DNA of 62,377 nt, counting the filler, from Chrysochromulina tobinii (lineage: Eukaryota): NCBI GenBank assembly GCA_001275005.1. It is 7 parts of 7 records of this genome, joined end to end, with 100 filler letters (N's around TTAATTAATTAA, not from the genome) between each part and the next. Parts side by side here need not be neighbours in the genome. Positions count along the whole stretch, not along the records: positions 39,609 to 55,989 come from JWZX01001107.1; 6 more parts are not named here. One strand, 5' to 3'. Below the pieces are notes generated by a model. That model was not told the DNA's origin. It ran no database searches and was given only the letters and a program-made list of their open reading frames with translations. The stretch's first letter is position 1; each line of letters starts with the position of its first letter. This document shows positions 925 through 58,125 of this stretch, in pieces. The position numbers and the translations under genes were made by a program.

Positions 925-1010
925 TCAAACCCCATCTCTCGTTTCTCCATCGGAGTTCTCTGCAGCCTCTGGGGACTCAACTGGCGGCTGCAGTGGAGTG
1001 GGCGGCCCCG

Positions 1011-1075
<65 letters not shown>

Positions 1076-9973: not shown

Positions 9974-10008
<35 letters not shown>

Positions 10009-11865: not shown

Positions 11866-12213
11866 TCTGAGTGCACACACGCAGAGAGACTTGGCACGTC
11901 AGATGGATGCTAGGCTTTACGGGCGGGCGCGATGGCTCAGGCGTTGCGTGCAGACGCGGGCGGTCGGCAAGAATGTCGTACTGCGCGAGAATGCCCGCCC
12001 TTTCACGTTGCGTGAACGTTAACACAAGAGCGTGAGGGCGTGAATGTGGAAACTCTTCAGGACGTACGTGACTTTCGAAGCCATTAGTTAGAAATTCGAA
12101 CCCTTTCACACATTGCAAACACATTCACAGCTTTTGAAAGGAGGCCGAATGAAAATGTCGTCTTGAATTGCGTTCCCGCCGCGACGCGGTGACCCTCTGA
12201 GAGAGAGAGCGCC

Positions 12214-14687: not shown

Positions 14688-15503
14688 GCGCCGTGATGAG
14701 CACTCGCATGCGTAGGAGCATAGCACTCCCAGCTACTCGCAGAGCGCCTTCCAGCGGCGGGGCTCATCTCGTGTGCCATACTCCTGTGTGGCCTAGTGCC
14801 GTGAGAGAGCTGCGGAATCGTGAAAGCTCTGCATATGCATGCAATGCATGCATGCGTGACCTGTGGGCATGTGTTTGGTCGGACTCGGAGCGAGCCGCGT
14901 GTACGTGCGTGCCGTGTGGGCGGGCAGTACGCGCGGGTGCCAGTCAGTCAGTCAGTCAGTTTCGTCGCGGTCCCCCGCGCTCACCACAGCGCGGGTAGCG
15001 CGGGTGCGGCCTGTCCGATCTGCGTTGTGTGAGGCCATGCGTGCGCGAGCGGTCGCGGTCCCTACCGTCCGGTCGTACACGCTCGTACCCCCCCGCGCCC
15101 CCGTGCCCCCGTGCCGTACGAGCACGGGTCCCCGCCGGCGCGGCGCTCGAGAGACACGACACCGCTTTACGGTTGCGATTATAGGCCGCCTCGCAGACCG
15201 CTCACGTGGGTGCAGGATGGTCGCAGGTCTCCGGCGTAGGCCGGCACTCGGCTGGCACAGAAAGTTTGGGTGAACTCGTTGACGGTTTGGTCAATCATTT
15301 GTCAGTTTTGGCGTTTCAGCATATTTCTTATGACAGTCTTCGTCTTTCTTCGTCCGGGGGGATTCGGAAACTGAAATGAAAGCCGCGGGAGGGTACCCAC
15401 CGACTGTGCGCGCGGCAGACTGGCGCGGAGCCGTACCGGTACATGTACCGGTTGGGCGGGCGCGGCGCCGTGGCGTGGGGTGGGAACACGACTGCCACGC
15501 GGC

Positions 15504-34866: not shown

Positions 34867-37800
34867 ACCTCTGATGACCGCTGAGGGCCTCTCATCCACG
34901 CGGCAAGGGGGGAGGGGCGGCGTACCTCGGTCGTCGCCTTGGCGGCCTCCGGGTACGCCGCGAGGAGCGCCTGCACCACCGCCACCGATGAGCTCCACGC
35001 AGCGGCGCAGTGAAGGGACGTCCACCCTCCCTGTGCGTGGAACACAGCAGCAAGGAGAGGAGGTTGGTGAGCGATGAGGTGGGTGGAGCAGGTGTGAGGG
35101 ACAGGGTGCTTGGACGCTACGCAGAGCCAGGGGCGGTGAAGACCGCGTGCCGAGGGCCCTCTGCGTGCCTCTGAGTGCCGCTGAATGCCTCTGAGTGCCT
35201 CTGAGTGCATCTGAGTGGTCGCTGATGACCTCTGAGTGCCTCTGAGTACCTCTGATGAGCCACTGAGTACCTCTGATGGCCTCTGAGGGGCCCGCTGATG
35301 GCCTCTGAGGGGCCCACCGAGTGGCCACCGAGTGGCTCTGAGTGGCGCTGAGTGTCCTCTGAGTGCCGCTGAGTGCCCTCTGATTGCGAATGATGATCCC
35401 TGATTGCACATGATTACATATGATGACCTCTGATGACCGCTCAGGGCCTCTCATCCACGCGGCAAGGGGGGAGGGGCGGCGTACATTGGTGGTCGTCGCC
35501 ATGGCGGCCTCCGGGTACGCCGCGAGGAGCGCCTGCACCACCGCCACCGATGAGCTGTTACGAGCGGCCCAGTGAAGGGGCGTGGCCCCTTCCTGTGCGT
35601 GAAACACAGCAGCAAGGAGAGGAGGTGGATGAGCGATGAGGTGGGTGGGGCGGATGTGAGGGACAGGGTGCTTGCGGGGGGCGCGCGAGCGATGGCGAAT
35701 GTGCGGAGTCGTACGGCCGCGCCGCCGCCTCCCCCTGCGGCCCTTCCCCTGCCCCCGCCCCGTCGATCGCTTCGCCACCGATCGGTGCTGTCCCGAGCGT
35801 CGTGTACGAAATGCGGCGCACCGAATCCGTCGCTCTGGCTGCTGCTGGCGTGATCAGCGGGAGGACCTCGGCGTCGGGCCGTTCGTACGTGCTACCATCC
35901 ATCAGGAGGCTCATCCTCGCGAAGAAGGCCTTGACCTCGGCGTTGTCATTGGACTTGGCAATTTCGGCCGGCGTGTCGCCACCCTGCGGCGCGGGCACGC
36001 GGAGAACGAGGGCGGCGGAGCGAGGGTCGTCAGGGGCGAAAGGGACGGGGAGGTGCGCACGACGATGGCGCAGCAAACGGGCACGCGCGCGCGCGCGCGC
36101 CGCCGCGCCACCAATGATGGCGCTGGCAATCTCGGGTCCCGGTGCCCTCTGAGTGCCCTCTGAGTGCTGCTGAGTGCCCTCTGATTGCGTCTGATTGCGT
36201 CTGATTGCGCCTGATTGCATCTGTTTGTGCCTGAGTGCCTCTGATTGCGTCTGATTGCGTCTGAGTGCCTCTGAGTGCCTCTGAGTGCCTCTGAGTGCCT
36301 CTGATGACCTCTGAGTGGCCTCTGCGTGACTCTGAGTGCTACCGATTGCCCTCCGATTGCTCATGATGACCCCTGATTGCCCTTGATTACCTCTGACTGC
36401 CCTCTGACTGGCCTCTGATGACCTCCGATTGCTTACGATCACCTCTGAGAGCCTCTGAGGGCCCGCTGAGGGCCGCTGAGGGCCACCGAGAGGCCTCTGA
36501 TCGTCCTCTGAGTGCCGCTGATTGCCCTCTGAATGCAAATGGTGACCCCTGATTGCCCTTGATCACCTCTGAATGCCCTCTGATGACCGCTCAGGCCCTC
36601 TCATCCACGCGGCAAGGGGGGAGGGGCGGCGTACCACGTCCGTCGCCATGGCGGCCTCCGGGTACGCCGCGAGGAGCGCCTGCACCACCGCCACCGAGGA
36701 GTTGTGAAAAGCGGCGCAGTGAAGGGACGTCCACCCTTCCTGTGCGTGGAACACAGCAGCAAGGAGAGGAGGTTGGTGAGCGATGAGGTGGGTGGAGCGG
36801 ATGTAAGGGACAGGGTGCTTAGACGCTACGCAGGGCGAGGGGCGGTGAAGACCGCGTGCCGAGGGCCCTCTGCGTGCCTCTGAGTGCCGCTGAATGCCTC
36901 TGAGTGCCTCTGAGTGCCTCTGAGTGGTCGCTGATGACCTCTGAGTGCCTCTGAGTACCTCTGATCACCTCTGATGAGCCACTGAGTACCTCTGATGGCC
37001 TCTGAGGGGCCCGCTGATGGCCTCTGAGGGGCCCACCGAGTGGCCACCGAGTGGCTCTGAGTGGCGCTGAGTGCCCCCTGAGTGCCGCTGATTGCCATCT
37101 GATTGCGAATGATGACCACTGATTGCCCTTGATTACATATGATGACCTCTGATGACCGCTCAGGGCCTCTCATCCACGCGGCAAGGGGGGGAGGGGCAGC
37201 GTACCGTGTTCGTCGCCATGGCGGCCTCCGGGTACGCCGCGAGGAGCGCCTGCACCACCGCCACCGATGAGCTGCACGCAGCGGCCCAGTGAAGGGGCGT
37301 GTACCCGTCCTGTGCGTGGAACACAGCAGCAAGGAGAGAAGGTGGTGAGTGACGACGTGGGCGGGGCGGATGAGAGGGACAGGGTGCTTAGACGCGCTAC
37401 GCAGGGCGAGGGGCGGTGAAGACCGCGTGCCGAGGGCCCTCTGAGCGCCTCTGAGTGCCGCTGAATGCCACTGAGTGCCTCTGAGTGGCTCTGAGTGGTC
37501 TCTGATGACCTCTGAGGGCCTCTGAGTACCTCTGATCACCTCTGATGAGCCACTGAGTACCTCTGATGGCCTCTGAGGGGCCCGCTGATGGCCTCTGAGG
37601 GGCCCACCGAGTGGCCACCGAGTGGCTCTGAGTGCCGCTGAGTGCCCGCTGAGTGCCCTATGATTGCGAATGATGACCACTGATTGCCCTTGATTACATA
37701 TGATGACCTCTGATGACCGCTCAGGGCCTCTCATCCACGCGGCAAGGGGGGAGGGGCGGCGTACCTTGTCCGTCGCCTTGGCGGCCTCCGGGTACGCCGC

Positions 37801-37912
37801 GAGGAGCGCCTGCACCACCGCCACCGATGAGCTGTTATAAGCGGCCACGTGAAGGGGCGTGTTCCCGTCCTGTGCGTGGAACACAGCAGCAATCAGAGGT
37901 GGATGAGTAATG
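34867..37912. repeat. Tandem exon+intron units (~560 bp) with internal 10-bp CTGAGTGCCT/CTGATGACCT arrays
   Basis: Near-identical intron blocks recur at ~35031-35484, 36740-37204 and 37310-37764. Confidence 0.9.
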
Positions 37913-39063: not shown

Positions 39064-39120
39064 CTGAGTGGGGCGCCGTGGTGAGCACTTGCATGCTCGG
39101 TCCGGCCGATAGCGAGACAC
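39064..39120 (-). mobile_element. Module-A insert with ~22-nt exon-like duplication; host gene not resolved
   Basis: GCATGCAAGTGCTCACCACGGCGC on the - strand between CAGTGTCTCGCTATCGGCCGG and CAGTGTATCGCTATCTGCCGG. Confidence 0.6.
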
Positions 39121-39608: not shown

Positions 39609-42600
39609 CGGGTGCACGGGCGTCGTAGTGAGCGTCGACGGCGGGTGCACGGGCGAGCAAGAGGCAGGCGTGCTTGGCGTGATTGCACCGCCGGCACCAC
39701 CGCCGGCACCGCCCACCACGGCGCCGCCCACCACGGCGCCGCCGCGGCCGCCCATCTCGCTCGCGAGATCATTCGCCCGTTGGATTGGGGGCTTCAGACG
39801 CCCCGCTGACGATGCCCGTGCCGCAGGGTTCAAACGAGAGCGCACCTGTGGGGAGAGGAGGGCGCCGTGGTGAGCACTCGCCTGCCGAGCCGTGGTGCCG
39901 CAGGGTTCAGCCACGAGAGCGCACCGCCGCCGCCGCCATCAGACGGCTCTCGCGCTTCGCTGGCTCCTCGGACGGCTTCGGACGCAGCACACGCGGCGGC
40001 GCGAGTCGAGAGCGCCGTGGTGAGCACTTGCATGCAGGGCGGGTCCTCCGCGCTGTGGTAAGCACTTGCATGCAGGGCGGGTCCTCCGCGCTGTGGTGAG
40101 AGCACTTGCATGCAAGGCGGGTCCTCCGCATGCAATCGACGCACCTTCGGGCGCAGCACCCGCGGCGGCGCGAGGAGGAGCTCGGCCGTTACGTCCTCCC
40201 ACGCGCCGAGATTCGCGCCGAGATTCGTGCCGAGATAGCCGGCCGAGTAAGAGCAGCGGCCCGTCCCAGCGCTCAGCTTCTCTGGTCGGGACGCGACCGC
40301 GGGGCCTCCGTGCACGGGGCGGCTGGGGTGGTACGCGTGGGCGGGGTAGGGAGCGATTGCAGGGGGGGCCAATGGGGGGGCGATCATCTGGTCCTCGGGC
40401 ATCTGCACCTGATGAGGGAGGCACTCAGCACGCACTCGGCATGCAATTACGGGGGCAATCACGAGGGCGATCATCGGGGGGCGATCGTCGGGGGGCGATC
40501 TCAGGTGCAATCTCGGGTGCGATCTCGGGGGCGATCTCAGGTGCGATCTCGGGCATCTGCACCTGTGGAAATGTCGACTCGAAAGAATGAGTCAACGCAG
40601 CGGCGGCGGCGGCGGCGGCGGCGACGGGGTTGGCGGCGACAGCGGCGGCGACGGCGGCTGCAGCGGCGGCGGCTTCGGCGGCTTCGGCGGCGGCGGCGGT
40701 GGCAGCGGCGGCGGCGGCAGCAGCGTCGTACGCCGCGGCGGCAGCGGCGGCTTGGGCGGCGGTGATGGCGGTGGGGGCTGCGGTGGTTATGGGGGCATGG
40801 GCGCCGTGATGGGCATGGGCGCCGTGTTGGGCATGAGGAGCCGGCGGCGCGGCGCAGGACGAGCAGGTCGTGTTGGAGCGCCGTCTTGGGCAGCCCGTGT
40901 CACGCGGCGGCGACGTAGCCTCAATCGCGGCCCAGTCGACTTCAGACGCTCCTCCCTCAGGCATCGCCCCGTTGCGCCCATCTAAGCGCGACTCCTCCCG
41001 CGGACTAAGAGAGTGTTCGGAGGTGCGAGGGCTGTAGTGCGGCGTCTTGGGCGGCAGGCGCTCGACGCCCATCTCGGCGCCCATCTCGGCGCCCATCTCG
41101 GCGCCCTCGACGCTCGCCGCACCCGCCAGCACCCGCGCCACCGCATAGCCTCCCATCGCGTGGACCCGAGCCACCAGCCTCGACGCTAGCGACGCCGGAT
41201 CGGCAACGCCCACCTCGGCGCCCCGGGCGCCCGTCTCGGCGCTCTCTCGCGAGGGACGACGGAGGCCCGCGCTCACCGAGCGCCGTCCTGAGCGCCCATC
41301 GGCGCCGTCCTGAGCGCCCACGGCGGCGTAGCCCGTGCCGAGGGCCCTGGCTGCAATGGCCTGGTGGTACGGCTCGACGGAGGCCGAGGGCAGGGAGATC
41401 GAGAGCCTCGCGGGAGATCGCGGCAGATCGAGAGCGTCGCGGGAGATTGAGAGCCTCGCGGGAGATCGCGGCAGATCGAGAGCCTCGCGGGAGATTGAGA
41501 GCCTCGCGGGAGATCGCGGCAGATCGGCCACGGACGAGCCCGGCGACGAGTCGCGCAGCGTCGTACCGGGCGCCTTCGTGGGGGACACGAACTGGTCCAT
41601 GAGAGCGCTCAGCGAACTCCGATGGCTGCCCGCACTGCTCGAGCGCCGTGTTGGGCTCCCGTTGGTACCGGCACCGGCGTCACCGGCCGCGCCGAGCGCC
41701 GTATTGAGCGATCGGCGAAGGCTGCTCGTGCGAGATCCCAAATTAGGGCTGCTCGTGCGAGAGCCCAAATTAGGACGCTCCAGGACCGAGAGCGCATCCG
41801 CCACGGAACGTGGCTTGAGGCCCGCCGCACGGTCGGCCTTCTGGGCGGCGCGTACCTGTGGGGAGAGGAGGGCGTGGCGCCGTGGTGAGCACTTGCATGC
41901 CGAGGCCCGCCGCACGGTCGGCCTTATGGGCGGCGCGTACGATCACGTCCTTGCGCGTAATCAATGTTAATCAATGTTAATCTATGTAAATCAATGGTAA
42001 TCAATGGTAATCAATGGTAATCAATGGTAATCAAGGGCAGCGGTGCGTACGATCACGTCCTTGCGCAGCTCCTCGTGCCAGAGAGAGAGCACCATCGGGT
42101 AGCTCTCGTTCACGTCGAACTCGATCATCGCGTTCTCGAGCATACCTGTGGCGAAACGGGCGGGCGCCGTGGTGAGCACTTGCATGCTGGAGGGCGCTCG
42201 AGCTCGATCCTCGGGCGCCGTGGTGAGCACTTGCATGCTGGAGGGCGCTCGAGCTCGATCCGCGGGCGGGGCGTACTCTCATGCTCTGCCTGGCCCGCGC
42301 TCCGTCGCATCTTGAAGTGGCCGGCGATCACCTGTGGGGAGAGGAGGGCGCCGTGGTGAGCACTTGCATGCCGCGCTGGCGCGCGCTCCGTCGCCTCTGC
42401 AACACGGGCCCGGCTTCTCACCTGGTTGTCGGAGGCCCAGTCGATGCCCCAGGATTCCTTACGAGTGACGATCTGCATCGTGCCTATCAAGAAGTCAACG
42501 TACGCCTTCGGATCGAGCGAGTCGAGAGCGCCGTGGTGAGCACTTGCATGCACGGCAGGTCCTCCGCGCCGTGGTGAGCACTTGCATGCACGGCAGGTCC

Positions 42601-43247
42601 TCCGCATGCAATCGACGTACCTTCGGATCGAGCGAGTCGGTCCACAGGTCCGCCAGCTCGAACCAGCACCAGTAGAACCGCTCCTTATCCATGAAGCGCT
42701 TGCCGTCGGCGTCTTTGACCCAGTCCTCCGCGGCCGCCTCGAAGGCGGTCTTGGGCGGCGTGGTCGGGTCGAGGGCGAGGACGAGCTTTCGATGCATCAC
42801 GAGGTACTCCTCCCTGTCGATCGCCCCGCTCCGGTCCGTATCCGTCGCCTTCCAGATCGTCTCGAGCGCGCGCACGACCTTTGGGTGCGAGAGCAGCAAG
42901 ACACGCCGGCGCAGGCCCTCCTCCGTGTAGTACTGCGCGAGCAGCCGCTTCTCGCGGCGTGAGGTCGCATGCAGCTTGGCCTTCTCTCCGAGCTCGCGCA
43001 TGCGCTCGATCTTCACTTGGATCTCGGGCCGCGCCCAATACTCCTCGTCGCGCAGCGGATCGGAGGAAGCTGGGGCCGCCGCCGCCGGCACCATCCACGC
43101 TGGCGGCGGAGCAGCGTCGTCATCGTCGGATCCTGGCGACGGCAGATCAGCGTCCAGGGACGGCAGACCAGCGTCCAGGGACGGCTCGCCGTCGCCGGCC
43201 GCCTCGAAGGCGTTCTTGGGCGGCCAGCCAGTCGCCACGTCGTCCAT
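39609..43247 (-). CDS. EF-hand protein with long low-complexity C-terminus; 7 introns (42620-42506, 42421-42332, 42276-42146, 42050-41856, 40562-40409, 40144-39976, 39924-39846); 3' truncated
   Basis: DTDRSGAIDREE loop and WFELADLWT. Removing the seven GT-AG introns gives one continuous frame to the contig edge. Confidence 0.78.
39846..39924 (-). mobile_element. Module-A intron, acceptor-supplying type
   Basis: Starts with a copy of the downstream exon (GTGCGCTCTCGT..TGAACCCTGCGGCAC) and ends GTGCTCACCACGGCGCCCTCCTCTCCCCACAG. Confidence 0.8.
39976..40144 (-). mobile_element. Module-A intron, donor-supplying type, three tandem cores
   Basis: Starts GTGCGTCGATTGCATGCGGAGGACC and ends with a 30-nt copy (2 mismatches) of the upstream exon end ...CCGAAG. 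Confidence 0.8.
40409..40562 (-). mobile_element. Module-B intron, acceptor-supplying type
   Basis: Starts with a copy of the downstream exon GTGCAGATGCCCGAG and ends CTGAGTGCCTCCCTCATCAG. Confidence 0.8.
41856..42050 (-). mobile_element. Compound (nested) intron: TTGATTACCA array plus module A, with two duplications
   Basis: 22-nt duplication GCGCAAGGACGTGATCGTACGC and a 39-nt copy (1 mismatch) of the downstream exon; ends CTCTCCCCACAG. Confidence 0.8.
42506..42620 (-). mobile_element. Module-A intron, donor-supplying type, two tandem cores
   Basis: Starts GTACGTCGATTGCATGCGGAGGACC and ends with a 19-nt copy CGACTCGCTCGATCCGAAG of the upstream exon. Confidence 0.82.
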
Positions 43248-43671
43248 TTTCGACGCGCGTCGGGACGGACTCGCTGAGCAGACCGAGGAAAGGCTCGGAA
43301 GGGAAACGCCTCATACGGCGCCCTTTTGCGTGAAGTAGGTTATACTTCCAAACGCAGCACTCCACCGCGCGTGCAGCGCCTATACACCTGTACATGGTAC
43401 ATGTACATGTACCATACAGCACAGATCAGAAAACAGGGAGCATGCCCCATGCTCTGCCGTCGCGCAGAGTAGAGCTCACCACACGAGACCGTCGAGTACA
43501 TCCCGACCTTAGCCATGCTGCGACTGCCCAACCCCCGTGTGTCATGCACTTCGCTGCTGTACGAATGGCTGCTGCTGCCGCTGCTATTGCTGCTATTGCT
43601 TCGATGTCTGTGCCTGCCGCTGCTGCGAGAGAGCGCGCGCCGTGCCGGATCTTGGGCAGCTCCTTCCCCTA

Positions 43672-44208
43672 TTAGGCAGACTTCGTTACCGTCTTCTTGG
43701 CGAAAAAGTTGATGAACATGCCGAAGAAGGATGGCTTCTTCGTCGCCGCCTTCTCCGCCATCGGTTGTGCCAGCTCCGCCATCGGTTGTGCCTGCTCCGC
43801 CAACACTGAGCCCGCCTCCTCACGCTCATTCATCTCCGCAAGCACTGCAAACGGGTTCTCGCTCGCATGCTTCGTGACGTTGAACGGCGAGGTGATCTCC
43901 GGCAGCACCTCCTGTGGCGCGTCGTTCTCATTCTTCATGAGGCCGGCCGAGCGCACCGGCCGCTTCTTTGCGATCTTCTTGATCGGGCTGCTTGGCTTGT
44001 CAGCCTTGGGAGCCGGCGCCTTCTTGACGGAGGCGGACGTGCTGGTGGCGGCGGCAGCGCGGCGAGTGGTAACCGAGGGCTTCTTGCTAAAGGTGATTGT
44101 CTGCAGATCCTCGGGCTCCAGATCATTCAAAGAAGACCTGGTCACAGGATTGCGGTTCGGTCGGTGATGCGGGCAAGACAGTGCCGAGCATGGAGATCCA
44201 ACACTCAA
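43672..44208 (-). CDS. Hypothetical Lys/Ala-rich protein; 5' structure uncertain
   Basis: Codon-biased open frame; no recognisable domain. Confidence 0.4.
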   Translation of the reverse strand: MSVGSPCSALSCPHHRPNRNPVTRSSLNDLEPEDLQTITFSKKPSVTTRRAAAATSTSASVKKAPAPKADKPSSPIKKIAKKRPVRSAGLMKNENDAPQEVLPEITSPFNVTKHASENPFAVLAEMNEREEAGSVLAEQAQPMAELAQPMAEKAATKKPSFFGMFINFFAKKTVTKSA

Positions 44209-44535
44209 CGGCAGGTGTCTGTAGTGGCCGGCAATGAGTTGGTAGGAGGAGGGGTATGGGGACCGAAGGCCCCCACGCGGCGGCGCACCATTCTCCCTTG
44301 CTGGCCGGCATCGTCGTCGGCGATTTCAAATCGAAGGCCCGCGACGAAGTTCCACAGGAAGAGAAATAGTTGACGATATCCGGGCGACCTGCATCGTCAG
44401 AATTGATCTTTCAACGCAGAAGATTTCAGGAAATTGACGTTACTCACCGCTTGCGGACTTCAATACGAAACACTGTTAGGAACCTACGAAACACGATCTC
44501 GCTGGTTGCCGCTGCAAGGCCTCGGCCCTGGTAAA

Positions 44536-45770
44536 ATGCCGATCACCCATCTCTTTCACGTGCCGAATCTTGACTATCCAGGCGTGCGGCATTTGCATCG
44601 CGATCCAGACATAATTGCCATCGATCACTTTGCCAGCGACGACGAGTGCGACGGCCTGGCGCAGCTCTACGCGCGCTCGCACGGCCGAGCGCGCCCATCG
44701 GCGACTGCTCCTGGTCAGGAGGCGCTGCGTACGTCGACGACCGTGTTTCCGGACGAGCTAGAGGTGCGATGGCTGCGCGAGCGCATCGCTCAGGCTACCA
44801 ACATCGCATCGCTCGAGCAGCTGGAACCGACCAAGCTGACCCGCTATGCTGCGGGCGAGTACTTTCGGAAGCACATCGACGCCTCCTTCCTCAACGAGAA
44901 GATGTGGGCTTACGCCGCGCGCCTCGCCGGCGTCGACGAGGACGGCGTGCAGGCGCCGTGCAGCTGGCCGAGCCGCTTCGTCACCCTCTTCCTCTACCTC
45001 AATGACGTGGACCGAGGCGGACGTACGCGCTTCCGTTGGCTCCACAGCTCGGCATGCGGAGGGCGGCATGCGAGGGCGGCATGCGAGGGCGGCATGCGAG
45101 GGCGGCATGCGAGGGCTCACCACGGCGCCATCCTCTCCCCACAGGTACGCGCTTCCGGTGGCTCGACGGCTCCGGATCCATGCCTGGCGGCGCTGTCTTC
45201 ACGCAGTCGATCGAGGCACTCGCTGCGGCCGCGGCCGCCGCCGATGCTTCTTCCGTGCCCATCACGGCGCTTCCTCACGAATTCCGTGCCCATCACGGCG
45301 CCGATGCTTCTTCCGTACCAGGGACAGCCGAGCCGCCTGCGACCGCGCCCATCACGGCGCCTGACGAACCACAGGGTTCGACCAGCGTGAACGAGCTGCC
45401 TGCGACCGCGCCGGCCTTTCGAGAGCCCGCGTCGGAGTTGAACATCAAGGAGCTCAACATCAAGCCGATCAAGGGGACGGCGATCTTGCACTTTCCGAGC
45501 ACACGCCAAGAGTTCGGATGCGTACCAGATCCGCGCACGATGCACGAGAGCGAGCCAGCTCTGGACGAGAAGCTCATCGTGCAGCAGTTCATCTGGCCCG
45601 TGCCGCTGCGAGCGCCGAGTGCGGCAGACGGCCATGGCTTCGCCAGCGAGGCTCAGGGGCAGGCGCAGGGGCAGGCCGAGGGCATCATGTGGGGCGCCCA
45701 GCACGGCGCCCAACATGAAGACGTGCGGGCCGAGTGGGCGGCCATCCTGGCCGCCGCTGGCAGCGGCTGA
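44536..45770 (+). CDS. Prolyl 4-hydroxylase-like 2OG-Fe(II) dioxygenase; exons 44536-45022 and 45145-45770
   Basis: RTSTT, YFRKHID, RFVTLFLYLNDVDRGGRTRF, KPIKGTAILHF, DPRTMHESEP, EKLIVQQFI. Confidence 0.88.
45023..45144 (+). mobile_element. Module-A intron, acceptor-supplying type
   Basis: First 28 nt copy the downstream exon (3 mismatches); GGCATGCGAGGGC repeats; ends CTCACCACGGCGCCATCCTCTCCCCACAG; removal restores the conserved GGRTRF motif. Confidence 0.85.
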
Positions 45771-45951
45771 GTGGTGCCGTTGAACAGCAACAGCACCAGG
45801 CAGGCAGACGTGTAAAAGTTATGATCTCCAAAGTCATCATCGTTTTCACAACCGTTTCGCTTCCTGGCTTCGGGAGCTCTGCGTTCGCCCCGTCTGTCGC
45901 CCACTTGGCGACTCGCGACGGCCCTCAGTTCGACTTGGACAAAGCTGCTCG

Positions 45952-48900
45952 ATGCAGGCAGAGCTGCTCGCGAGCAGCACGCCCGCGTCGGCGGCTCTCG
46001 CGGCGGCGTTGGGAGCGAACCCGGCAGAGCTCAAGCACGATTGGCATCTCGTGGGGCCGGAGCTGACGCGCGTGGAGTTTGCATACCTCGTCTCGCGCCA
46101 TCTGGGTCAGCACGCGGAGCTCTCGCAGCGGTCGCAGAACGAGCTTCTCACCGGCACGGCGGAGCTCTATGAGGAGGCGACGGTCCTGCAAGGCGACAAG
46201 ACGCGCATCTCGTGGACTGCGTTCTCGCAGGCGCTGGTCGCGGCGACGCTCGCCGCCGGTCCGCCGCCGCGCCTCGCCTCGGACGCACGCCTGGTACGCT
46301 CGCGCGTCATCGTCGACGGCAGCAACTTAATCTCGAAAGCCAAGCCCAAGGCCGCCATGTTCAGCAAGAAGCGCCCCGCGGAGGGTGGACTCGTGATCTC
46401 GCCTGATCTCGCGATCCATTTCCTGCCGAAGCCGGTCTCGCGATTCCTCGTGTGTGAGGAGAACGCCGACAGCCCCGACTACCGGCTCTCGCTCTGGACG
46501 ATGAGCGGCGGCGCCGGCGAGCAGACGAGCACCCGCCTACTTAGCTGTCTGAACGTGCTGCAAGAGCGTGGTCCACTACCGTCGAGCGTTGCGCTCGTGC
46601 CGACGCTACGCTACCCGACTCGTGAGACCTCTGTCGGGGCCATCACCACGGGTGATTGCACCGCTGATTGCACCGCTGATTGCACCGCTGATTGCATGCT
46701 GATTGCATGCTGATTGCATGCTGATTGCCATGGATTGTGATTGCTGACCACCAATTACCTCCGTCATCGTCCACTGATGGCCTCCCTCATCAGGCCTGAC
46801 GATTGTCATCGGCTCGTCCACACGCGCCCTCACCCTCGTGGTCCTCTCTGCGCCGCCCGGCGGCGGACGCAACACCAAGTTCTCCGCGGATGAGGTCGTC
46901 CAACTCGGCACACCCGCGCCCATCACGGCGCTCTTGGCCTCCCGGCGTGCCGGTGGTACCCCTTTGTTGTGGGGCGGCGCGGCCGACGGCCACGTGTACA
47001 CATGGGCTCTGAGCAGCTGGCCTTGGCCCCTCATACAAACGTTCCAGGCGCACTCGGCCGGCGTCACCGGTCTCGTGTCGCTCCCTAATTTGGAATGGGT
47101 CTGCTCCTCGTCCTCGGACGGCACGTGCCGCTTGTGGCTCCTTGACTCAGGGCTCACCTCGTCAGGTACGTTGATTGCCACCGATGACCTGCCTTGCATG
47201 CAAGTGCTCACCACAGCGCGGCTCCTTGACTCAGGGCTCACCTCGTCAGCCGCCGATGCGCCCAACACGGCGCTCAAGGGTGACAAGAGCTCACCTTCGA
47301 AGGCCTCCCCCTTTGGGAACAAGGCGTTGCAGGGCGCCTGGCTGGGCGAGAAGGAGAAGGGCGCTCGGCGAATCTCGGCGCTCGCGTATTGTGCGGAGCG
47401 CTCTGATTGCGAGCGCAATCATGTGCTGATGGCCGCCGATTCTGATGGCATCTCTGATGGCATCTCTGATGGCATCTCTGATGGCCTCCCTCATCAGGTG
47501 ACGAGCGCAATCATGTGCTGATGGCCGTTGGCCGCCGAGTCACGGTGTATAACCCCTTGCTGTGCGAGAGGGTGGCGACCCTCGCGGAAGCTACTGATCC
47601 AATCCAGGTGCGCTGATTGCCGCTGATTGCCGCTGATTGCCGATGATTGCCCATGATGACCGCTGATGACCGCTGACGACCGCTGATGACCCTCTGATCC
47701 AATCCAGGGCATCTGTGCCACGATGCCCGGCCTCTTGGTCACCTCTGACACAGGGGGGCATGTACGGGTCTTTGACTCGACTTGCCACGAGCTCCTACAG
47801 ACTCTCCAGCTGGTACCTTCAGGCATGCTCCCTCGCGCCCCGCGCTGCCCTAATAACCCTAATGAGCGCCCTAATGAGCGCCCTAATGACCATTTACCTG
47901 GTACCTTCAGGCATGCTCCCTCGCGCCCCGCGCTGCCCTAATAACCCTAATGAGCGCCCTAATGAGCGCCCTAATGACCATTTACCTGGTACCTTCAGGC
48001 ATGCTCCCTCGCGCCGCGCCACCCTTATTACCCAAATGAGCGCCTTAATGAGCGCCCTGATGACCCTCTACCCGGTACTTTCAGGCATCCTTCCTCGCGG
48101 CGTGTCGCCCACGTTGCATCACACGCTCCTCGTCGACGGCTCGCTGCTCTGTGCGGCCGCGGGTGTGTGCTTGCATCTGAGTGCCTCTGAGTACCTCTGA
48201 TTGCCTCTGATGGTGTCTGAGTGCATCGGATTACCCTCTGATGGGATGACTCTGATGGACTCTGATGGACTCTAATGGACTCTGATGGACTCTGATGGAC
48301 TCTGATGGACTCTCTCTGAGAGGCCTCTGATTGCGGTCTGACCGCCTCCAATTGCCCCTGAGCGATTCCAATTGCCACCTTCATTAGCCTCCAATTGCCC
48401 CTAAGCGATTCCAATTGCCACCTTCATTAGCCTCCAATTGCCCCTAAGCGATTCCAATTGCCACCTTCATTAGGCTCGCTCTCCCTCCTCAAGTTTCGTC
48501 AGCCGTCCCTAGAAGAGCTTCGAGAGCGTGCGCTCGGGACGGCGCTTGGCCTTGCTGATGGCGCCAAGGTCGGCGGCGACGGCGCGGAAGGCGGCGCCGC
48601 CGATGCGGACGCACCGAAGCCACTCGACGCACAGTCGTCGCGCTCGGCTGTAGCTGTAGCCATTTGCAGGCGCATGGGACGGCTTGTCACCATTAGTGGT
48701 CGCGACGTGAACACCTTCGACGCCATCAGCGGCGCCCCCCTCGCGGGCGCGATGGATGTGTGCCCTGCCGCTCTCTCGGTGCGTGCGCTTCCTGATTGCA
48801 TCTCTGATGGCCTCCCTCATCAGGTGCTCGCGCTCGATCGGACGGATTGCATGCTGATGGCCTCCCTCATTGCATGCTGATGGCCTCCCTCCATCAGGTG

Positions 48901-51900
48901 CTCGCGCTCGATCGGACGGATTGCATGCTGATGGCCTCCCTCATTGCATGCTGATGGCCTCCCTCATCAGGTGCTCGCGCTCGATCGGACGGAGCGGACG
49001 GCGTTCGTCGGTTCGCTTGGCGGCGAGATCGTGCAGCTCATCTTGTCAGAGTCGTCCGTGCAGGTGCTGCGCAAGCTTGGGCTCTGTCACAGCACCGAGC
49101 TCGTCGCTATGAGCATGCTCACGAGCTGGGGTACGGGGCCATCCTCACAATTGACGAACTCCTCACAATGGACGGAACTCGAAAGGATCCGGATCTCTGA
49201 GTGCATGCTGATTGCCTCCCTCATCAGGTACGGGGGCCATCCTCACCTCTGACGGAACTCGAAAGGATCCGGATCTCTGAGTGCATGCTGATTGCCTCCC
49301 TCATCAGGTACGGGGGCCATCCTCACCTCTGACGGAACTCGAAAGGATCCGGACCTCCATCGCCATGGCACGCTCGTGCTCTCGCTCTCCTCGGATGGCA
49401 ATCTCAACGTCATCTCCGCGCACGAAGGCAAGAACCTCGCGACCCTGCGGCACCGCGCCATTGGGGAGAGCGTCTGTGTGGCCTCATGCTCCATCTCATC
49501 GCTGATCGCCGTCGCCGGCGTCACCGAGGGCGAGGGCGTGCTGGCGGTGCATCGCATGTTTGACTCCTCGACGGTGCGTCTCCAGTGATTGCATGCTGAT
49601 GGCCTCCCTCATCATCGCATGTTTGACTCCTCGACGGTGAGTGCATGCTGAGTGCATGCTGATTGGATCCCTCATCGGGTGACGTACCCTGAGTGCCTCC
49701 CTGAGTGCATGCTGATTGCATCCCTCATTAGGTGCTGGACGCTCCCGCTGAGTGCCTCCCTGAGTGCATGCTGAGTGCCTCCCTCATCAGGTACGCATCC
49801 ACTGCCCCGCGACCAAGATCAAGATGGCGGAGGTGACCGCGCTCGCTTTCCTCTCCAGTCCGCCCGCGACGGCGCCCGCGACGGCGCCCGCGATGGGAAC
49901 GTCCCCCATCGCCACCAAGCCGCCGCCCAGCACGGCGCCTGACGAACCGCAGGGCTCGTCCAGCGGCGCGAACTTGCACCTGAGTGAGCAGTACAGCCTG
50001 GCGTCACGTCGACGACTCCTACTCGTCGCTGACGCGACCTCGACGCTTATCCTCTTCGACGTGTCCGCATCGGGACGGCCGCCGCACCCGTTGCAGCGCT
50101 TCACGCACCCGCGCCCGCGTGCCACGTGGCTCTCGTCCAGGTGCGCTGATTGCCGCTGATCGCCCCGCTGATGACCCTCTGCCACGTGGCTCTCGTCCAG
50201 GTGCGCTGATTGCCGCTGATTGCCGCTGATTGCTCCTGATGACCGCTGATGACCCTCTGCCACGTGGCTCTCGTCCAGTCGAGCCGCGAGCTTGAGTCGT
50301 CAGCACGATGCGCAGAAGGTCAAGGCGCTGAGGGGCACTGTGGAGCGTTCGGTGCGCGAGCTGTCGAGAGATTTGAGGACCTCTGATGACCTCTTGATTG
50401 CCTCCTTCATCAGGTGCGCGAGCTGTCGAGAGATCTGATGGCACCGCTGATGGCGCCGCTCATTGCGCCGCTGATGGCGCCGCTCATTCCCTCCATCCTC
50501 AGGTGCGTGACAATGAGCTCACAGCGTACGCTTCGCTCCATAACATTGAACGCGAACACAAGCTCCGCACCGAACTGGACGCTCGGGGCGCTCACCGCGG
50601 CGCTACTCGGGCAGCAGCAGCAGCAGCTGCTGCTGCTGCCCGAGACGGCGCGTCCCCTGGACCGCCCACCGCCCGAGACGGCGCGTCCCCTGGACCGCCC
50701 ACCGCCCGAGACGGCGCGTCCCCTGGACCGCCCACCGCCTACCGTTCACGTTCACGCTCTCTCGATTCGGCACCGCTCACACCTCTCATGGCGTCAGCCT
50801 CCACCCCCGCGCTCCTGATGCCCAACTCGGCGCTCAAGACGCCCAACTCGGCGCTCGGTACGCCCAACTCGGCGCTCACGCGCGCCACCACGTCGTCGGC
50901 CGAGGGCCTCTTGACACCGCACAATCCTAATATGGCCATTGGAACCCCGACGCCCTTTGCCAAATTAGGCAACGCCCCGATGCCTCATTTGGCCGCGGGC
51001 GCGTCGCTGCGCCCACCGCCGCTCATGGTGGTGGAGGAGGAGGCCAAGGCCTACGCAGGCGGCGCCGGCGCGCCGGTGGTGCCCACGACGGCGCTCCGAG
51101 GCGCATTCCGATCGACCGAGCCACACTCGATCGCACGGCCGCCGCAGTCCGTGCGTCTCGAGCCGACGTTGCCTAATTTGGCAGACGCAGTCTCTTTTGA
51201 CGTGGCGAGCCGCCGGGCCTTTCCGATGGGCGCCGGGGCGAGCGGTCTGCACCCTCTCCAGGTGCCCCAGACGCCGGTAGGCTTACCGGTAGGCATCGGT
51301 GCAGGCAGCAGCTGCACCCCCCACACCCCACACACACCCCACACCCCCCACACCCCCTACAACCCCCACACCCCCAGCAGCGTCGGGCTCGGCCGTCACG
51401 GTCTCCCAACGTGCGTGCAGCCGCTGCCGACGAGCGGCGGCGCTCACGGCGGCGCCCTCCTCGCTCTGCCCACGTGTGGGAAGCCGGTCTGTTCACAGCC
51501 CAACTTCACAGCCTTGCCGGCCGGCTTGCCCTCTGTGCTCCCGTCCTCGCTGCCCACCGCGCACCATGCGAACGCCATGCCCTTATTTGGGCACTCAGAG
51601 CTCGGCGCGGGAGATCGGAGCTCGGGAGATCCGAGCTCGGGAGATCCGAGCTCGCTCGCCTTTCCGACGGAGAGTCAGTGCGTCACCGCGATCGCCGTCG
51701 AGCCCGCCTCGTCCATTTCGTCAGTTTCGTCAGTTTCGTCAGTTTCGTCCACCGGGCTGCCGGCGCCGCTGCGCTTCGTCACCACCGACGACGCGGGCGG
51801 CATGTGCGCCTGGCGCCTCTCGTGCGTCGCGGGCAAAGCGGGCGGCGCCGGCGTCCCCCCAACGGCTCCCACGTACAAGGTTCGTTGATTGCCACTGATG

Positions 51901-53003
51901 ACCTGCCTGGCATGCAAGTGCTCACCACGGCGCTCTCGCTCTCGTGTACAAGGTGGAGCTGCTCAAGCGTTGGCGTGGCACAGCGGAGGAGGATAAGGTC
52001 TTGGGCATCGGGGGCAACAACGGCATCACAGGCGTCGTCGTGATCGCTGCGCGGCGCGGCGCCAGAGGAGGGGCACCCTTATTAGGAGCACCCTTAGTAG
52101 GGGCACCCTTATTAGGAGCACCCTTAGTAGAGGATGCCGACGAGGTGGCTCTGGGCACGTCCGTGCCGCTCGTCGTCGTCGCGGCATGCGCGAACGGCAC
52201 TCTGAGCGCGTTCGGCGTGAACTCGGGGCAGCGATTGGGCCTGATGACGACCAGCGGCCTCACCAAAAGCACGGGCCTCTCCAGGCCGAACACACCCGAC
52301 AGTGCGCCCTCCGGCATGCATGTGCTCACCACGGCGCCCCGCTCACTTCCCCACAGGTACGGGCCTCTCCAGGCCGAACACACCTGCGTCAGTGACCAGC
52401 ACGGCGCTCCTCGCCGGCGCGCCGGGTACGTGGCACGACTATCATTGGCAACTGCCGCTGCATGCCCGGGAGGACGCGACGCTCGCGGAGACTGTGAACG
52501 ATCTCGCCGACGAGCTGCGCACGCATGTGCCCAGCTCGGCGCTCCCCCTCTTCCCGCGTGCGACGGTCGCCGGGGTGGGCGGCGCGGACGAGGAAGAGGA
52601 CTTGCCTAATAAGGAAGAGGACTCGCCTAAGAAGGGCAAGCTCATGGAGAAGGCGCTCGCGACGCTCGCGCAGGTGACGGCGGAGGCAGAGGCCGCCAGG
52701 GATACGACTCACCTCGAACTGGCCGCCGATCTGAGCGATGGGAACCCCACAGTGCGACGACGTGCGGCACAGGAGCTGCGAAAGCACCAGCTGCTCTTTT
52801 CGTACCTGGACAAGTCGGTGCCGCCGCGACAGCGCGCCGAGGCCGAGAAGAGCAGAGCCGGCGCGCGCAGGCCGAGTCACGAGGAGGGGTCGGATGCGGG
52901 GGCTCCCAGATGTCGCAGCCCCGAAGCCCTTGCATTCGCGAGCAGAATCAAGGAGGCGCGCGAGGCGATGCTTAGCGCCTCTCCGAAAGGGGCAAACACT
53001 TGA
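45952..53003 (+). CDS. Large WD40/beta-propeller-like protein with 13 predicted introns (46652-46793, 47166-47249, 47391-47497, 47608-47707, 47823-48084, 48163-48473, 48779-48970, 49131-49307, 49574-49790, 50141-50278, 50352-50502, 51880-51952, 52269-52356)
   Basis: WD-like segments (QTFQAHSAGVTGL...SSSSDGTCRLW; VTSDTGGHVRVFD). The listed introns join the ORF fragments into one frame. Two need GC donors and the last donor is ambiguous. Confidence 0.7.
47166..47249 (+). mobile_element. Module-A intron, donor-supplying type, perfect 30-nt duplication
   Basis: GTACGTTGATTGCCACCGATGACCTGCCTTGCATGCAAGTGCTCACCACAGCGC followed by a copy of 47136-47165. Confidence 0.85.
47391..47497 (+). mobile_element. 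Module-B intron containing a 26-nt copy of the downstream exon
   Basis: CGAGCGCAATCATGTGCTGATGGCCG is duplicated; ends CTGATGGCCTCCCTCATCAG. Confidence 0.8.
47608..47707 (+). mobile_element. Module-B intron, donor-supplying type
   Basis: GTGCGCTGATTGCC repeats followed by a 14-nt copy CTGATCCAATCCAG of the upstream exon. Confidence 0.8.
48779..48970 (+). mobile_element. Triple-stacked module-B intron with internal AG|GT junctions at 48823/4 and 48897/8
   Basis: Each CATCAG is followed by GTGCTCGCGCTCGATCGGACGG, the head of the downstream exon. Confidence 0.8.
49131..49307 (+). mobile_element. Double-stacked module-B intron with a 46-nt exon-head duplication
   Basis: 49228-49273 is identical to 49308-49353; internal AG|GT at 49227/8. 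Confidence 0.82.
50141..50278 (+). mobile_element. Double-stacked donor-supplying module-B intron
   Basis: The 21-mer TGCCACGTGGCTCTCGTCCAG occurs three times; internal AG|GT at 50200/1. Confidence 0.8.
51880..51952 (+). mobile_element. Module-A intron, donor-supplying type, short duplication
   Basis: GTTCGTTGATTGCCACTGATGACCTGCCTGGCATGCAAGTGCTCACCACGGCGCTCTC, ending with a GTACAAG copy of the upstream exon. Confidence 0.8.
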
Positions 53004-53163: not shown

Positions 53164-55408
53164 ATGCCCACCAAGACCGAGCGCATCCAGCGCGCATTCG
53201 AGATCTTCGATACCGACGGCAACGGCAGCTTGTCGATCGCTGAGCTCAAGGCGGTGTTGACAAGGCCCGGAGGTGGCCATGCATTGACGGACAAGGAGGT
53301 GGCGGCGATCATCGCCGAGTTCGATGCCAATGGCGACGGCGAGCTGCAGATCGATGAGTTTGCGCTCATGTGGGGGCCTCTAGTCGAGCAGCAGCTGCAG
53401 GAGGAGGAGGACGACGACGACGAGGAGGAGGAGGACGACGACGAGGACACGCCATTGGCGACGCCATCGACGAGCTTCATCCGTCGGTTGGTCAAGGGCG
53501 CCACCAAGGACAAGGGAAAGGGGAAGGCGAAGAGCAAGAGATCGTCCAGGGCGAAGAGCAAGCTTACGGCCAAGCCGTCGAAGGCGAAAAGCGCCAGAGC
53601 GGCCTCGCTCGCCGACCCTTCCGTCGATGAGAAAGCGGCGTCGAAGGGGTCTCTGCAGTCGTCGGCGGAGCTCGAGGCGCTCGTGGAGGAGGAGACGCGC
53701 GCGCTGGGCGAACTCGAGGCGCGGCTCGCGGCGGGCGGGCTCGACACTTTTGAACGCCGGCTGGGCGCGGCGCTGCTGGAGGAGGCTACTGTGAAGCAGG
53801 CGCTCGCGGGCAAGAGGAGCGCGCTGTTGGAACTGGTGCGCGCCTGATGTGCATGCTGATTGCGTCCCTCATTAGCGCTGTTGGAACTGGTGCGCCTGAT
53901 GGCATCTCGGAGTGCATGATGATTGCGTCCCTCATTAGGTTGAGGAGTGCGCCTGATGGAATCTCGGATCGTCTACGTCTGAATGTGTCGAGTGCATCTC
54001 GGACTGCATCTCTCATTGCACCTGTGATTGGCTCCATCATCAGGTTCGCTCGTGGGATCGTAACGGCGACGGCATGATCAACAAGGTGGAGCTGCGCCAG
54101 GTGGTGCGTAATAAACTCAAGGTGCACGCGACCAACGACGAGATCGACGACCTCTTCGACATCTTCGATGCCGACCACTCGAGTGCGCTCTGATGACCGT
54201 TGATGCGCTCTGATGACCGTTGATGACTTCTGAGGACCGTTGATGACCTCTGATGACCTGATGACCACTCGAGTGCGCTCCTGCTGCAAACGGCCGACCA
54301 CTGATGACCTCGGATGACCGTTGATTGCGTGCCTCATCAGATGCACTCGACCTCGACGAGCTCGGGCTCTGCCTACGCGCGCTGCAGGAGGCGGCCTCCG
54401 CCGCGCGCGCGGAGCTCGCCGAGATCTCGAGCCTGATTGACGAAGCACGCGCTCGGCTCGGGCAGCTGAGGGACGCGGTAGCGCTCATGAAACGGTTGGA
54501 GCAGGAGCAGGTGCGTGATCTGGAGGCGGAGATGCTGACAGTTGATTGATTGCCATGGATGGGCCCTGATGACACTGGATTGCAATTGAGCGCCGCAGGC
54601 TCGCTAATTGCCACCGATTGCCTCCCTAATTGCCACCGATTGCCTCCCTAATTGCCACCGATTGCCTCCCTAATTGCCACCGACTGCCTCCCTAATTGCC
54701 ACCGATTGCCTCCCTAATTGAGCGCCGCAGGCTCGCCATCTGGACAAGGGGCGGCCCTCCTCCAACGTGCCCTTGCGGATTCGCGCCGGGCGCCACTTGA
54801 CGAAGCTCAACCTCAAGATCCCGTTCGTGGTCAAGGGCTTTCCAAATCAGGCGCCCGAGGGCTTCGCTGGTCGCGAGGCGTTCGCGGCGGGCATCCGAGC
54901 GCTCCGAATGGCGGGCGGCGCGCTCGAGGACGCCGAGCTGGACAAGTGGTTTGATGCGGCGCTCCTTGAATGCATCGACGCGGGCGTCTCGATCCCGAAC
55001 GGCGGAGTGAAGCTGCAGCTCGTGCTGAGCGATGCGGTGGCTGAGGCGGCCAAGTTTGCGCAGGAGGCCGAGGAGAAGGCGGACGCAACCGAGCTTGTCA
55101 AGCTCAGGCGCACGGCACGCGATCAGCAGCAGGCGATCCGTGCGGCGCGCGCGGAGCAGCAGGCTCGCCGTGCCGAGCGCGAGGCGGCGATGCGTGCGGC
55201 GGCCGAGGCGAAGCAGAAGGCGGAGGAGGAAGCGCGCCAAGCCAAGATCCGCTCGTTCAAGCGACGCAAGAGCGTCAAGGAAGGGCATGACGCGAGCTTC
55301 GCTGCGCGTGTGGCCAGCAGGCGCGAGGTGCGCGGAGATCTCGCCGACCCCTTTTCGAGAACACCGTTCCTCGACGCGCTCAAGGCGGCTTCGAAGCCGC
55401 TCTGGTGA
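53164..55408 (+). CDS. Multi-EF-hand protein with coiled-coil C-terminus; introns 53836-54043, 54183-54340, 54511-54730
   Basis: Loops DTDGNGSLSIAE, DANGDGELQIDE, DRNGDGMINKVE and DADHSNALDLDE (the last spans a junction). Intron removal joins the ORFs in frame. Confidence 0.8.
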
Positions 55409-57711: not shown

Positions 57712-58125
57712 TTCGATGGCCAGCGTGTGGGCGGGACCGGCATCTCGATGGGTAACGAGGTTGTGCATTCACTCGTGCAGCCGCCGTGTTACCCGACTCT
57801 GCAACCCGCCACTGCGTCCGAGACCAATCTGCACAAAAAAGGCAGTTCGGGACGACGCTCCTCACAGGAGGGCCGCAACGGCGCCGTGAACGGGTCCATA
57901 TGAGGATCGATGTTGACCCCCCACTTTTTTCGAGTCCCAATGGTCCCGACGGGTAGTCCGGTGGATGCTGTACGTTTTTTTCGTGTCCGGCTTGCATGCA
58001 AAACATGCAATCCGTTGACGGTGCGATTTGCATCATCGCGCATCCGCTTGCTCCACCATCGCGCCTCGCGCGAACTGCCCACACGTCGCCGCACGCGTGG
58101 CTAGAGCATCTTTGAGCGTGCACAC

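Follow-up and report, generated by a model that had tools for sequence, protein, structure and literature searches.

Module introns and cores in the window

The window, i.e., the whole stretch of 62,377 nucleotides of the Chrysochromulina tobinii genome that was analysed, contains 15 matches to a 24-nt core at two mismatches or fewer (4 on the + strand and 11 on the - strand), in line with the roughly 15 copies originally predicted, whereas none is expected by chance (100 shuffles of the window). A 16th copy, carrying a 2-nt insertion, is located inside the intron at 40144. The module is made up of this core with or without a 33-nt donor arm and with or without a pyrimidine-AG tail (CCCCACAG). 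Ten introns of the window harbor the core, in every case on the sense strand of the host, as had been claimed for intronic copies. The features are as follows.

14688..14711, - strand: core without splice arms, antisense to a + strand gene, at the end of the reading frame of that gene
39073..39096, - strand: core without splice arms, with a 21-nt imperfect duplication on its flanks
39610..43247, - strand: host gene with an EF-hand-like domain (weak Pfam EF-hand/EH matches)
39846..39924, - strand: predicted acceptor-type intron, 79 nt; duplicated start of the downstream exon (gives GT), core, and CCCCACAG tail
39976..40144, - strand: predicted donor-type intron, 169 nt; a GT arm is followed by three core units and a copy of the upstream exon end
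41856..42050, - strand: compound intron, 195 nt; RNA joint
42146..42276, - strand: acceptor-type intron, 131 nt, with two cores and a diverged exon copy; RNA joint
42332..42421, - strand: acceptor-type intron, 90 nt; RNA joint
42506..42620, - strand: donor-type intron, 115 nt, with two cores; copy of the upstream exon end, 19/19 nt
45023..45144, + strand: predicted acceptor-type intron, 122 nt; 13-nt tandem repeats of the 5' end of the core
47166..47249, + strand: predicted donor-type intron, 84 nt (a multiple of three, no in-frame stop); exon copy 30/30 nt
51880..51952, + strand: predicted donor-type intron, 73 nt; exon copy of only 7 nt
52269..52356, + strand: predicted acceptor-type intron, 88 nt; GC donor out of a 28-nt exon copy (1 mismatch)

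All four donor-type starts (47166, 51880, 42620, and 40144) and all five acceptor-type ends (39846, 41856, 42332, 45144, and 52356) of the original prediction are found exactly at these positions, and its nine module introns are all present, although a tenth, at 42146-42276, had been missed. The host gene at 39610..43247 comprises six module introns and one intron of another repeat family (40409-40562), and removal of all seven yields a 901-aa open frame that reaches an assembly gap. In the intron at 39846, the excision of which leaves the host frame open, the exon copy is about 30 nt long and gapped; it measures 30 nt with 2 mismatches and gives AG in the intron at 40144, and is a diverged 23-nt match in that at 42332. 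The 3' 85 nt of the compound intron (41856-41940) constitute an acceptor-type unit with an exon copy of 39 nt and 1 mismatch, and its 5' part consists of a 10-nt repeat tract. For the intron ending at 45144, the exon copy is 28 nt long with 3 mismatches, and excision of 45023..45144 leads to a single frame from the ATG at 44536 to the stop at 45770. The core at 14688..14711 possesses a 19-nt imperfect duplication on its flanks.

RNA contigs display splicing in four of the four introns that were mapped closely, three via joints and one via 10-base overhangs only, which bears out the claim that partial copies make introns. For 41856..42050, a joint over 195 nt (CT..AC) occurs in one of four runs, its short side covering 24 nt. 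Joints over 131 nt at 42146..42276 and over 90 nt at 42332..42421 are each present in three of four runs, the latter intron being kept in one contig of the fourth run. At 42506..42620 no full joint was obtained, and 10-letter overhangs fit the spliced junction in three of four RNA runs; one DNA contig continues unspliced across the donor at 42620, and homologous proteins read straight through this site. An initial contig mapping across 41700-53000, the table of which was dominated by repeats, gave no splice joint among the joints listed.

The module family, its target duplications and its ends

The family extends over 60 distinct sites in 18 regions, with sequence-similar introns at unrelated gene positions. 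For the counts of tails, strands, duplications, and junctions, groups 37 and 48 were excluded as being the same sites as groups 6 and 29, the tail test was additionally performed without groups 8 and 44 (doubtful tails), and group 54 was counted as two separate window sites. At the core, DNA depth adds up to 20,840 and 40,432, as compared to 30-55 for unique pieces; while not itself a copy number, this suggests hundreds of copies or more. Viral contigs contain no exact core match, the module folds no better than shuffled sequences (z 0.0 to 2.0), and no Rfam family was found for it, just two weak microRNA matches, both on a CAG/CTG repeat. The module ends in CCCCACAG or has no tail at all, a poly(A) or simple-repeat tail not being seen, and its ends are not complementary, i.e., there are no terminal inverted repeats.

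When aligned, donor-type and acceptor-type halves merge over the core into a single GT-AG unit, and a complete GT..core..CCCCACAG form is present beyond the window, at L038 and L045, where only 5-6 bases are common to both ends. The predicted master intron of about 68 nt is therefore real as a complete GT-AG form, but its length is 67 nt. Judged by sequence, the adenosine of CTCAC, 22 nt upstream of the end of this form, is a candidate branch point. The core is almost invariant and accompanies 20 of 23 donor-arm matches and 38 of 43 tail matches, whereas the spacer that separates it from CCCCACAG differs greatly among copies. The core is nearly always retained beside the arms, as had been proposed, but antisense and in-frame exonic copies, where splicing is unneeded, preserve it just as well, so that a need for a branch point alone does not explain its retention. 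In one array (L045), donor-arm copies end short of the CTCAC motif.

The general layout at unrelated sites is a host copy, a module piece, and again a host copy. Of 3000 random sites, 9.9% show a flanking duplication with a local score of at least 12, as compared to 28 of the 43 unselected sites and 36 of all 60 (p 7e-18). The exon copy, formerly considered incidental, is the target duplication of an insertion. It is 12-41 nt long over the 36 sites and 5-7 nt at some others, and hence not of fixed length. The duplicate begins directly after the module piece at 19 tail-ended and 4 core-ended sites. A short exonic motif, CC[AC]ANN[AT]CGGCGC, was dismissed as a mark of module insertions, 3 of 57 sites being followed by a 10-nt duplicate as compared with 4.8% of 2359 controls (p 0.75). 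The region is also abundant in ordinary tandem duplications.

At the 5' end, module pieces retain 0-16 arm bases in a ladder-like series, and 27-33 in donor types and in tail-bearing copies picked by the search pattern. Two 3' ends occur, namely AG in tail-ended and the core end in core-ended pieces. The whole arm from GT together with a tail occurs in only 3 of 61 groups, all three chosen by the search pattern. Overlap of the junction with the target is 0-1 nt at 12 of 19 tail-ended sites, which leaves little for a DNA template switch, and 2-6 nt at 3 of 4 core-ended sites. The sole antisense copy that bears a tail has its end at the 3' splice site as well and overlaps the target by 1 nt; since selection can explain exact GT/AG ends in sense introns, the unselected evidence consists of this one copy. 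Tail spacers from one region differ by 4.2 edits and those from different regions by 5.6 (permutation p 0.002, or 0.008 when the window is left out), the CACAGCGC tail variant has a long 5' arm in 11 of 12 cases and the CACGGCGC variant in 8 of 43, and core variants group in one gene (L002). Tails that differ widely while neighbors are alike point to many templates, and the idea of a single template intron finds no support in its original form. Inspection by eye revealed no copy carrying the downstream exon of a template.

Equal frequency of the core on both strands, which would have spoken against the original reading, is not seen: of the 43 unselected sites, 24 are sense, 4 antisense, and 15 unclear. 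The direction in which the other family of intron repeats lies served as a proxy for strand, which leaves 18 of 60 sites unclear and calls one pattern-selected intron antisense from a weak cue. The core is also found antisense and in frame within exons. Insertions vary between strains that are about 98-99% identical: two 85-nt units of an acceptor intron in L005 are absent from L029, a related strain, and a 60-nt antisense insertion of L005, adding 20 codons in frame, is absent from L042. At empty sites, both the module and the duplicate are absent, and some copies of the L005/L042/L029 series lengthen introns that are already present. The strain empty sites could be precise losses, and the case with the 41-nt repeat could be an assembly collapse.

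Possible routes of module insertion

We are highly confident that a mobile module with variable target duplication makes introns, and its pieces are likely a still-active route to new ones. For the manner of writing, the leading mechanism is reverse transcription of intron RNA into staggered nicks, the chances of which we regard as evenly balanced. Two offset nicks would set the duplication, a free DNA end would prime on the 3' end of the RNA (AG) or, internally, on the GC-rich core end, and copying would halt at variable points, mainly close to the TGCATGCA palindrome. A precise intron would arise where a piece ending in AG meets a duplicate starting with GT, or a piece starting with GT meets a duplicate ending in AG. 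The remaining insertions would persist only in frame or outside coding DNA, from which the sense bias would follow, and the direct repeats would afterwards likely permit arrays and precise loss. The duplication statistics, the empty sites, the 5' ladder, the AG or core-end 3' ends, and the antisense AG-ended copy speak for this route; variable duplications and 5' truncation are traits of LINE and Penelope-like insertion (PMC9977147, PMC8557442). Against it stand the lack of a poly(A) or simple-repeat tail, the donor-arm copies of L045 that stop before CTCAC, and the regional likeness of copies, for which DNA templates close by would account just as well. A scan of 14 window frames gave neither a reverse transcriptase nor an autonomous partner, just one weak transposase-like match.

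A tentative extension of the RNA route is that a plain spliceosomal intron has turned into a retroelement, its excised RNA being reverse-transcribed into chromosome nicks without reverse splicing. The RNA would end at the 3' splice site or be trimmed about 9 nt beyond the branch point, and each new intron would be usable as template. If this is true, introns multiply and the short peptides HASAHHGA, CMQVLTTA, and GAVVSTCM enter proteins.

The regional likeness of tail spacers and the grouping of core variants in L002 are also what would be expected from DNA-templated break repair, in which a polymerase filling a staggered break switches briefly to a genomic module copy, often nearby, and then back, splicing selection sharpening the ends afterwards. 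The abundance of tandem duplications and the overlap of up to 6 nt at core-ended junctions accord with this possible but rather doubtful explanation, as do new Daphnia introns, which bear 4-12 bp repeats from staggered-break repair (PMC4202315). However, it explains neither the capture of the identical 24 nt at so many sites nor the 0-1 nt overlap at most tail-ended junctions nor the stop of the antisense copy at AG, and no copy seen by eye includes the downstream exon of a template.

It is improbable that gene conversion has spread the core among older introns as a protein-binding or splicing signal, with exon duplications as separate events. Although the near-invariant core beside a variable spacer, the copies that lengthen present introns, and the frequency of short look-alike motifs in exons without duplications would suit such a signal, the duplicate adjoins the module and is jointly absent with it at empty sites, homologous proteins read through the 42620 site, and antisense exonic copies are present. 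An ordinary MITE-like introner, i.e., a DNA transposon whose target duplication furnishes one splice site, would account for the combination of a carried and a recruited splice site, a known introner pattern, and the known 'Chrysochromulina sp.' family has 4-bp duplications and no inverted repeats; the unfixed duplications and the variable, non-complementary ends of the module make this very unlikely. Classical intron transposition, in which a complete intron is reverse-spliced into mRNA and the cDNA then recombines, can accommodate the complete 67-nt form of L038 and L045 with its 5-6 common end bases, but is hardly credible because it predicts whole introns in sense only and without long duplication, whereas the majority of copies are incomplete and flanked by duplications and some lie antisense. 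The in-frame antisense insertion of L005, with its empty allele in L042, contradicts it as a general route.

Comparison with known producers of introns

Where the sequence of new spliceosomal introns comes from is an old open question, and the known mass producers of introns are mostly transposons with fixed ends. The module makes introns by halves, the host giving the other splice site through a long variable duplicate. Introners combine one carried and one recruited splice site, and haptophyte families have been listed (Gozashti et al. 2022, 10.1101/2022.06.06.494994 / PMC9860276; Roy et al., 10.1101/2020.10.14.339549). Like them, the module is a short repeated sequence that gives precise introns at unrelated sites with one splice site from a target duplication, and it qualifies as an introner in the broad sense, with similar introns at unrelated sites that are spliced out and have empty sites in relatives. 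It functions like an introner but without terminal inverted repeats or a fixed duplication length: whereas introner classes have fixed 3-8 nt duplications and insert as whole elements, module duplications are about 5-41 nt long and its pieces are cut at either end. Also unlike introners, one family yields donor-carrying and acceptor-carrying forms, and splice-less pieces remain in exons. The 2022 screen demanded similarity at both intron ends (PMC9860276), which only 3 of 61 groups possess, so that half-module introns would probably be missed and such families would probably be undercounted by screens of this kind. Two module motifs gave no match in the part of the Gozashti 2022 table that was covered, none of 30 inspected rows among its 155 haptophyte rows holding a sequence, and the 'Chrysochromulina sp.' family was compared by its described features.

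Variable duplication, apparent 5' truncation, very short insertions, head-to-tail partial tandems, and occurrence in either orientation are shared with Chlamys-N4, MRC1, and Dualen (PMC9977147, PMC8557442), and non-LTR introners make up about 5% of classified introners (PMC12130899). Unlike non-LTR and Penelope-like elements, the module has two 3' ends, its ends are spliceosomal splice sites, and neither a poly(A)/repeat tail nor an Rfam family nor a partner in the window frames was found; among non-LTR/SINE-like traits it displays the variable-length duplication and neither a poly(A)/simple-repeat tail nor a structural-RNA head. An exon direct repeat supplies the splice site also in Daphnia staggered-break gain (PMC4202315) and in tandem genomic duplication (PMC3443670). 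In those gains, the filler is absent or mostly of unknown source and repeats are 4-12 bp, whereas the module provides one common filler at dozens of sites. Replitron-1 resembles the module in copy-and-paste insertion, variable target duplications, and fuzzy ends, and one Replitron protein is reported in a haptophyte genome, but it has a terminal direct repeat and a Rep gene, neither of which is seen for the module, and the passages available give no intron link (PMC10288648). A full-text literature search found no paper describing the anatomy of the module. As insertions differ between strains and the organism grows in mixed cultures, RNA and DNA templating can be tested against each other. 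Gene callers read through module introns, and protein P0001 holds a CMQVLTAA read-through.

Module introns in the window and their splicing

Fifteen matches to the 24-nt core shared by the module pieces exist in the window at ≤2 mismatches, as opposed to none in 100 shuffles, in agreement with the about 15 copies of the original prediction, and each of the nine intron starts or ends that it had named is confirmed in the sequence. In donor-type introns, a GT-bearing arm precedes the core, after which the end of the upstream exon is repeated (30, 19, 30, and 7 nt). Acceptor-type introns open with the duplicated start of the downstream exon (39, 28, 28, and ~30 nt, plus one diverged case), followed by the core and a pyrimidine tail closing with CCCCACAG. 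Three further features belong to this set:

42146-42276: tenth module intron
14688: core without splice arms, imperfect duplications on the flanks
39073: core without splice arms, imperfect duplications on the flanks

At 41856-41940 (-), the lone mismatch of the 39-nt exon copy changes an internal CAG to CAT and thereby eliminates a possible competing acceptor within the intron. The stop-free frame of 3657 codons at 925-11898 (-), a USP9/USP24-like ubiquitin hydrolase, contains no module copies.

Seven of nine single units tested have a length not divisible by 3, a minus-strand EF-hand-like gene becomes an open frame of 901 residues once its module introns are taken out, and removal of a module intron leaves a single frame from 44536 to 45770. 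When contigs of four RNA runs were aligned to 41760-42800, joints skipping 90 nt and 131 nt were each present in three runs and one skipping 195 nt in a single run, all with CT..AC ends at predicted positions and two or three of them together on individual RNA contigs. For the intron at 42620, RNA support consists only of 10-letter loose ends fitting the spliced junction (three of four runs), and its donor is crossed unspliced by a DNA contig. RNA evidence covers 4 of the 10 window introns, all within 41760-42800. Homologous proteins on other contigs (P0002, P0005, P0008, and P0014 among 14 matches) read straight through the 42620 site, a sequence comparison which suggests that this intron was gained in this lineage.

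Complete forms, target duplications, and strain-variable copies

Scanning metagenome contigs for the 33-nt arm, core, and tail in that order identified 45 loci in 26 distinct contexts, many of them donor types with a tail-like exon end or acceptor types preceded by repeats. The complete master intron, previously proposed by merging donor- and acceptor-type halves, is real: L038 is a complete GT-AG unit of 67 nt, as is the final unit of L045, and both have only 5-6 bases in common with the next exon. A tail together with at least 27 of the 33 bases of the arm occurs in 6 of 61 groups, which were picked by pattern and provide no measure of frequency. Loci and window together comprise 183 cores in 134 arrays; these represent 60 distinct sites spread over 18 regions, and 43 of the sites had not been selected by the search pattern.

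Flanking duplications of 12-41 nt (score ≥12) accompany 28 of the 43 unselected sites, whereas among 3000 random sites the proportion is 9.9% (p 7e-18), giving a footprint of host copy, module piece, and host copy. The 5′ ends of the pieces are variable, mostly 2-11 bases from the core's start near the TGCATGCA palindrome, and on the 3′ side a piece stops either with the AG or where the core ends. In 19 tail-ended cases the AG is followed directly by the duplicate, GT opens 17 of these duplicates, and the target overlap is 0-1 nt in 12. It is highly probable that the module is mobile, with a variable target duplication, and creates introns. The spacer preceding CCCCACAG varies between sites, copies of one region being more similar to each other (p 0.002, or 0.008 when the window is left out), and the two core variants are associated with arm length (p 6e-6); many templates or subfamilies are therefore indicated instead of the single one postulated.

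Comparison of 16 locus pairs from related strains, 97-100% identical, revealed empty sites and varying unit counts in arrays. The two 85-nt acceptor units that L005 carries are missing from L029, and the spliced L005 protein equals that of L029 except for one substitution in the stretch compared. A 60-nt antisense insertion in L005, absent from L042, adds 20 codons and ends with the module's AG; its 17-nt duplicate is too short for assembly collapse at usual word lengths, and a case with a 41-nt duplicate is less safe in this respect. One intron, at 7443-7640 (-) of L005, exists in three alleles among L005, L042, and L029 (donor unit; donor plus acceptor unit; two donor units plus acceptor unit), which suggests that a new unit joins the intron at a splice site already present and takes its place.

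An independent strand cue classed 24 of the 43 unselected sites as sense and 4 as antisense, leaving 15 unclear. Part of the sense bias, if not all of it, is probably a survival filter. Exons with an open frame contain splice-less cores in either orientation. Copies that have no need of a branch point thus retain the core as well, and a role as branch point does not by itself account for its retention. Cores of opposite orientation lie within ~100 nt of each other at L022:890-1000 and in L004 (- strand, ~1290-1400); the L022 pair, sense and antisense, is in frame within one exon near a DKTGTLT motif, which we take to be that of a P-type ATPase.

Possible origin and relation to known introners

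LINE and Penelope-like insertions display duplications of variable length, truncated 5′ ends, and partial tandems (PMC9977147, PMC8557442). As the module leaves such traces, has the ends of an excised intron even in the one antisense tail-bearing copy, and overlaps little with its target at most tail junctions, we favor a mechanism in which intron RNA would be reverse-transcribed into staggered nicks, and give it about half of our confidence. Against this mechanism, no reverse transcriptase was found among 14 window frames scanned, a poly(A) tail is absent, sense junctions can be explained by selection, and the local likeness of copies suits DNA templates. This likeness fits DNA-templated repair, a tentative second choice for which a parallel exists (PMC4202315); further parallels are tandem duplication (PMC3443670) and the Replitron (PMC10288648). 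A signal spread by conversion among old introns seems unlikely, and reverse splicing or a MITE-like introner, whose features the module lacks, are both very improbable.

Like introners with one carried and one recruited splice site (Gozashti, 2022, bioRxiv 10.1101/2022.06.06.494994/PMC9860276; Roy et al., bioRxiv 10.1101/2020.10.14.339549; for introner comparison see also PMC12130899 and the review PMC11282704), the module combines its own site with one from the exon copy, and it differs from introners defined by similarity at both intron ends. Among haptophyte introner families, one is described with a 4-bp duplication, no inverted repeats, and its own 5′ site (Gozashti, 2022, bioRxiv 10.1101/2022.06.06.494994); the donor type may overlap this family, compared by description only. 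The available text of one haptophyte genome paper names introns once and holds nothing of this module, and full-text searches, with subscription papers mostly outside them, yielded no description of its anatomy. Overall, the original observation stands, and the interpretation given with it is supported in part.

Other repeats and neighboring elements

A second, commoner intron family of irregular 10-nt repeats (46651-50501, 53847-54731, 14513-14598, and 40409-40562) has GTGCGCTGATTGC on the donor side, an acceptor side ending in CCTCCCTCATCAG, and the exon-duplication layout of the module, to whose arm its donor start is similar. One 85-nt acceptor-type unit of this family in L033 is missing in L007. 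In the whole window, the CArG-box-like CC[AT]6GG occurs 26 times (1.2 expected), often in predicted exons, and CCCANN[AT]CGGCGC, akin to the core's 3′ half, 25 times (0.3 expected), the latter with no tie to duplications. Two long intronless frames at 58105-62377 (+) are possibly a DNA transposon; the transposase-like RNase H match in the second is weak (PF21787, E 0.002, below cut-off). At 34867-37900 (-), a short exon resembling an ankyrin repeat is present in tandem copies, and every copy is accompanied by a long 10-nt-repeat intron.
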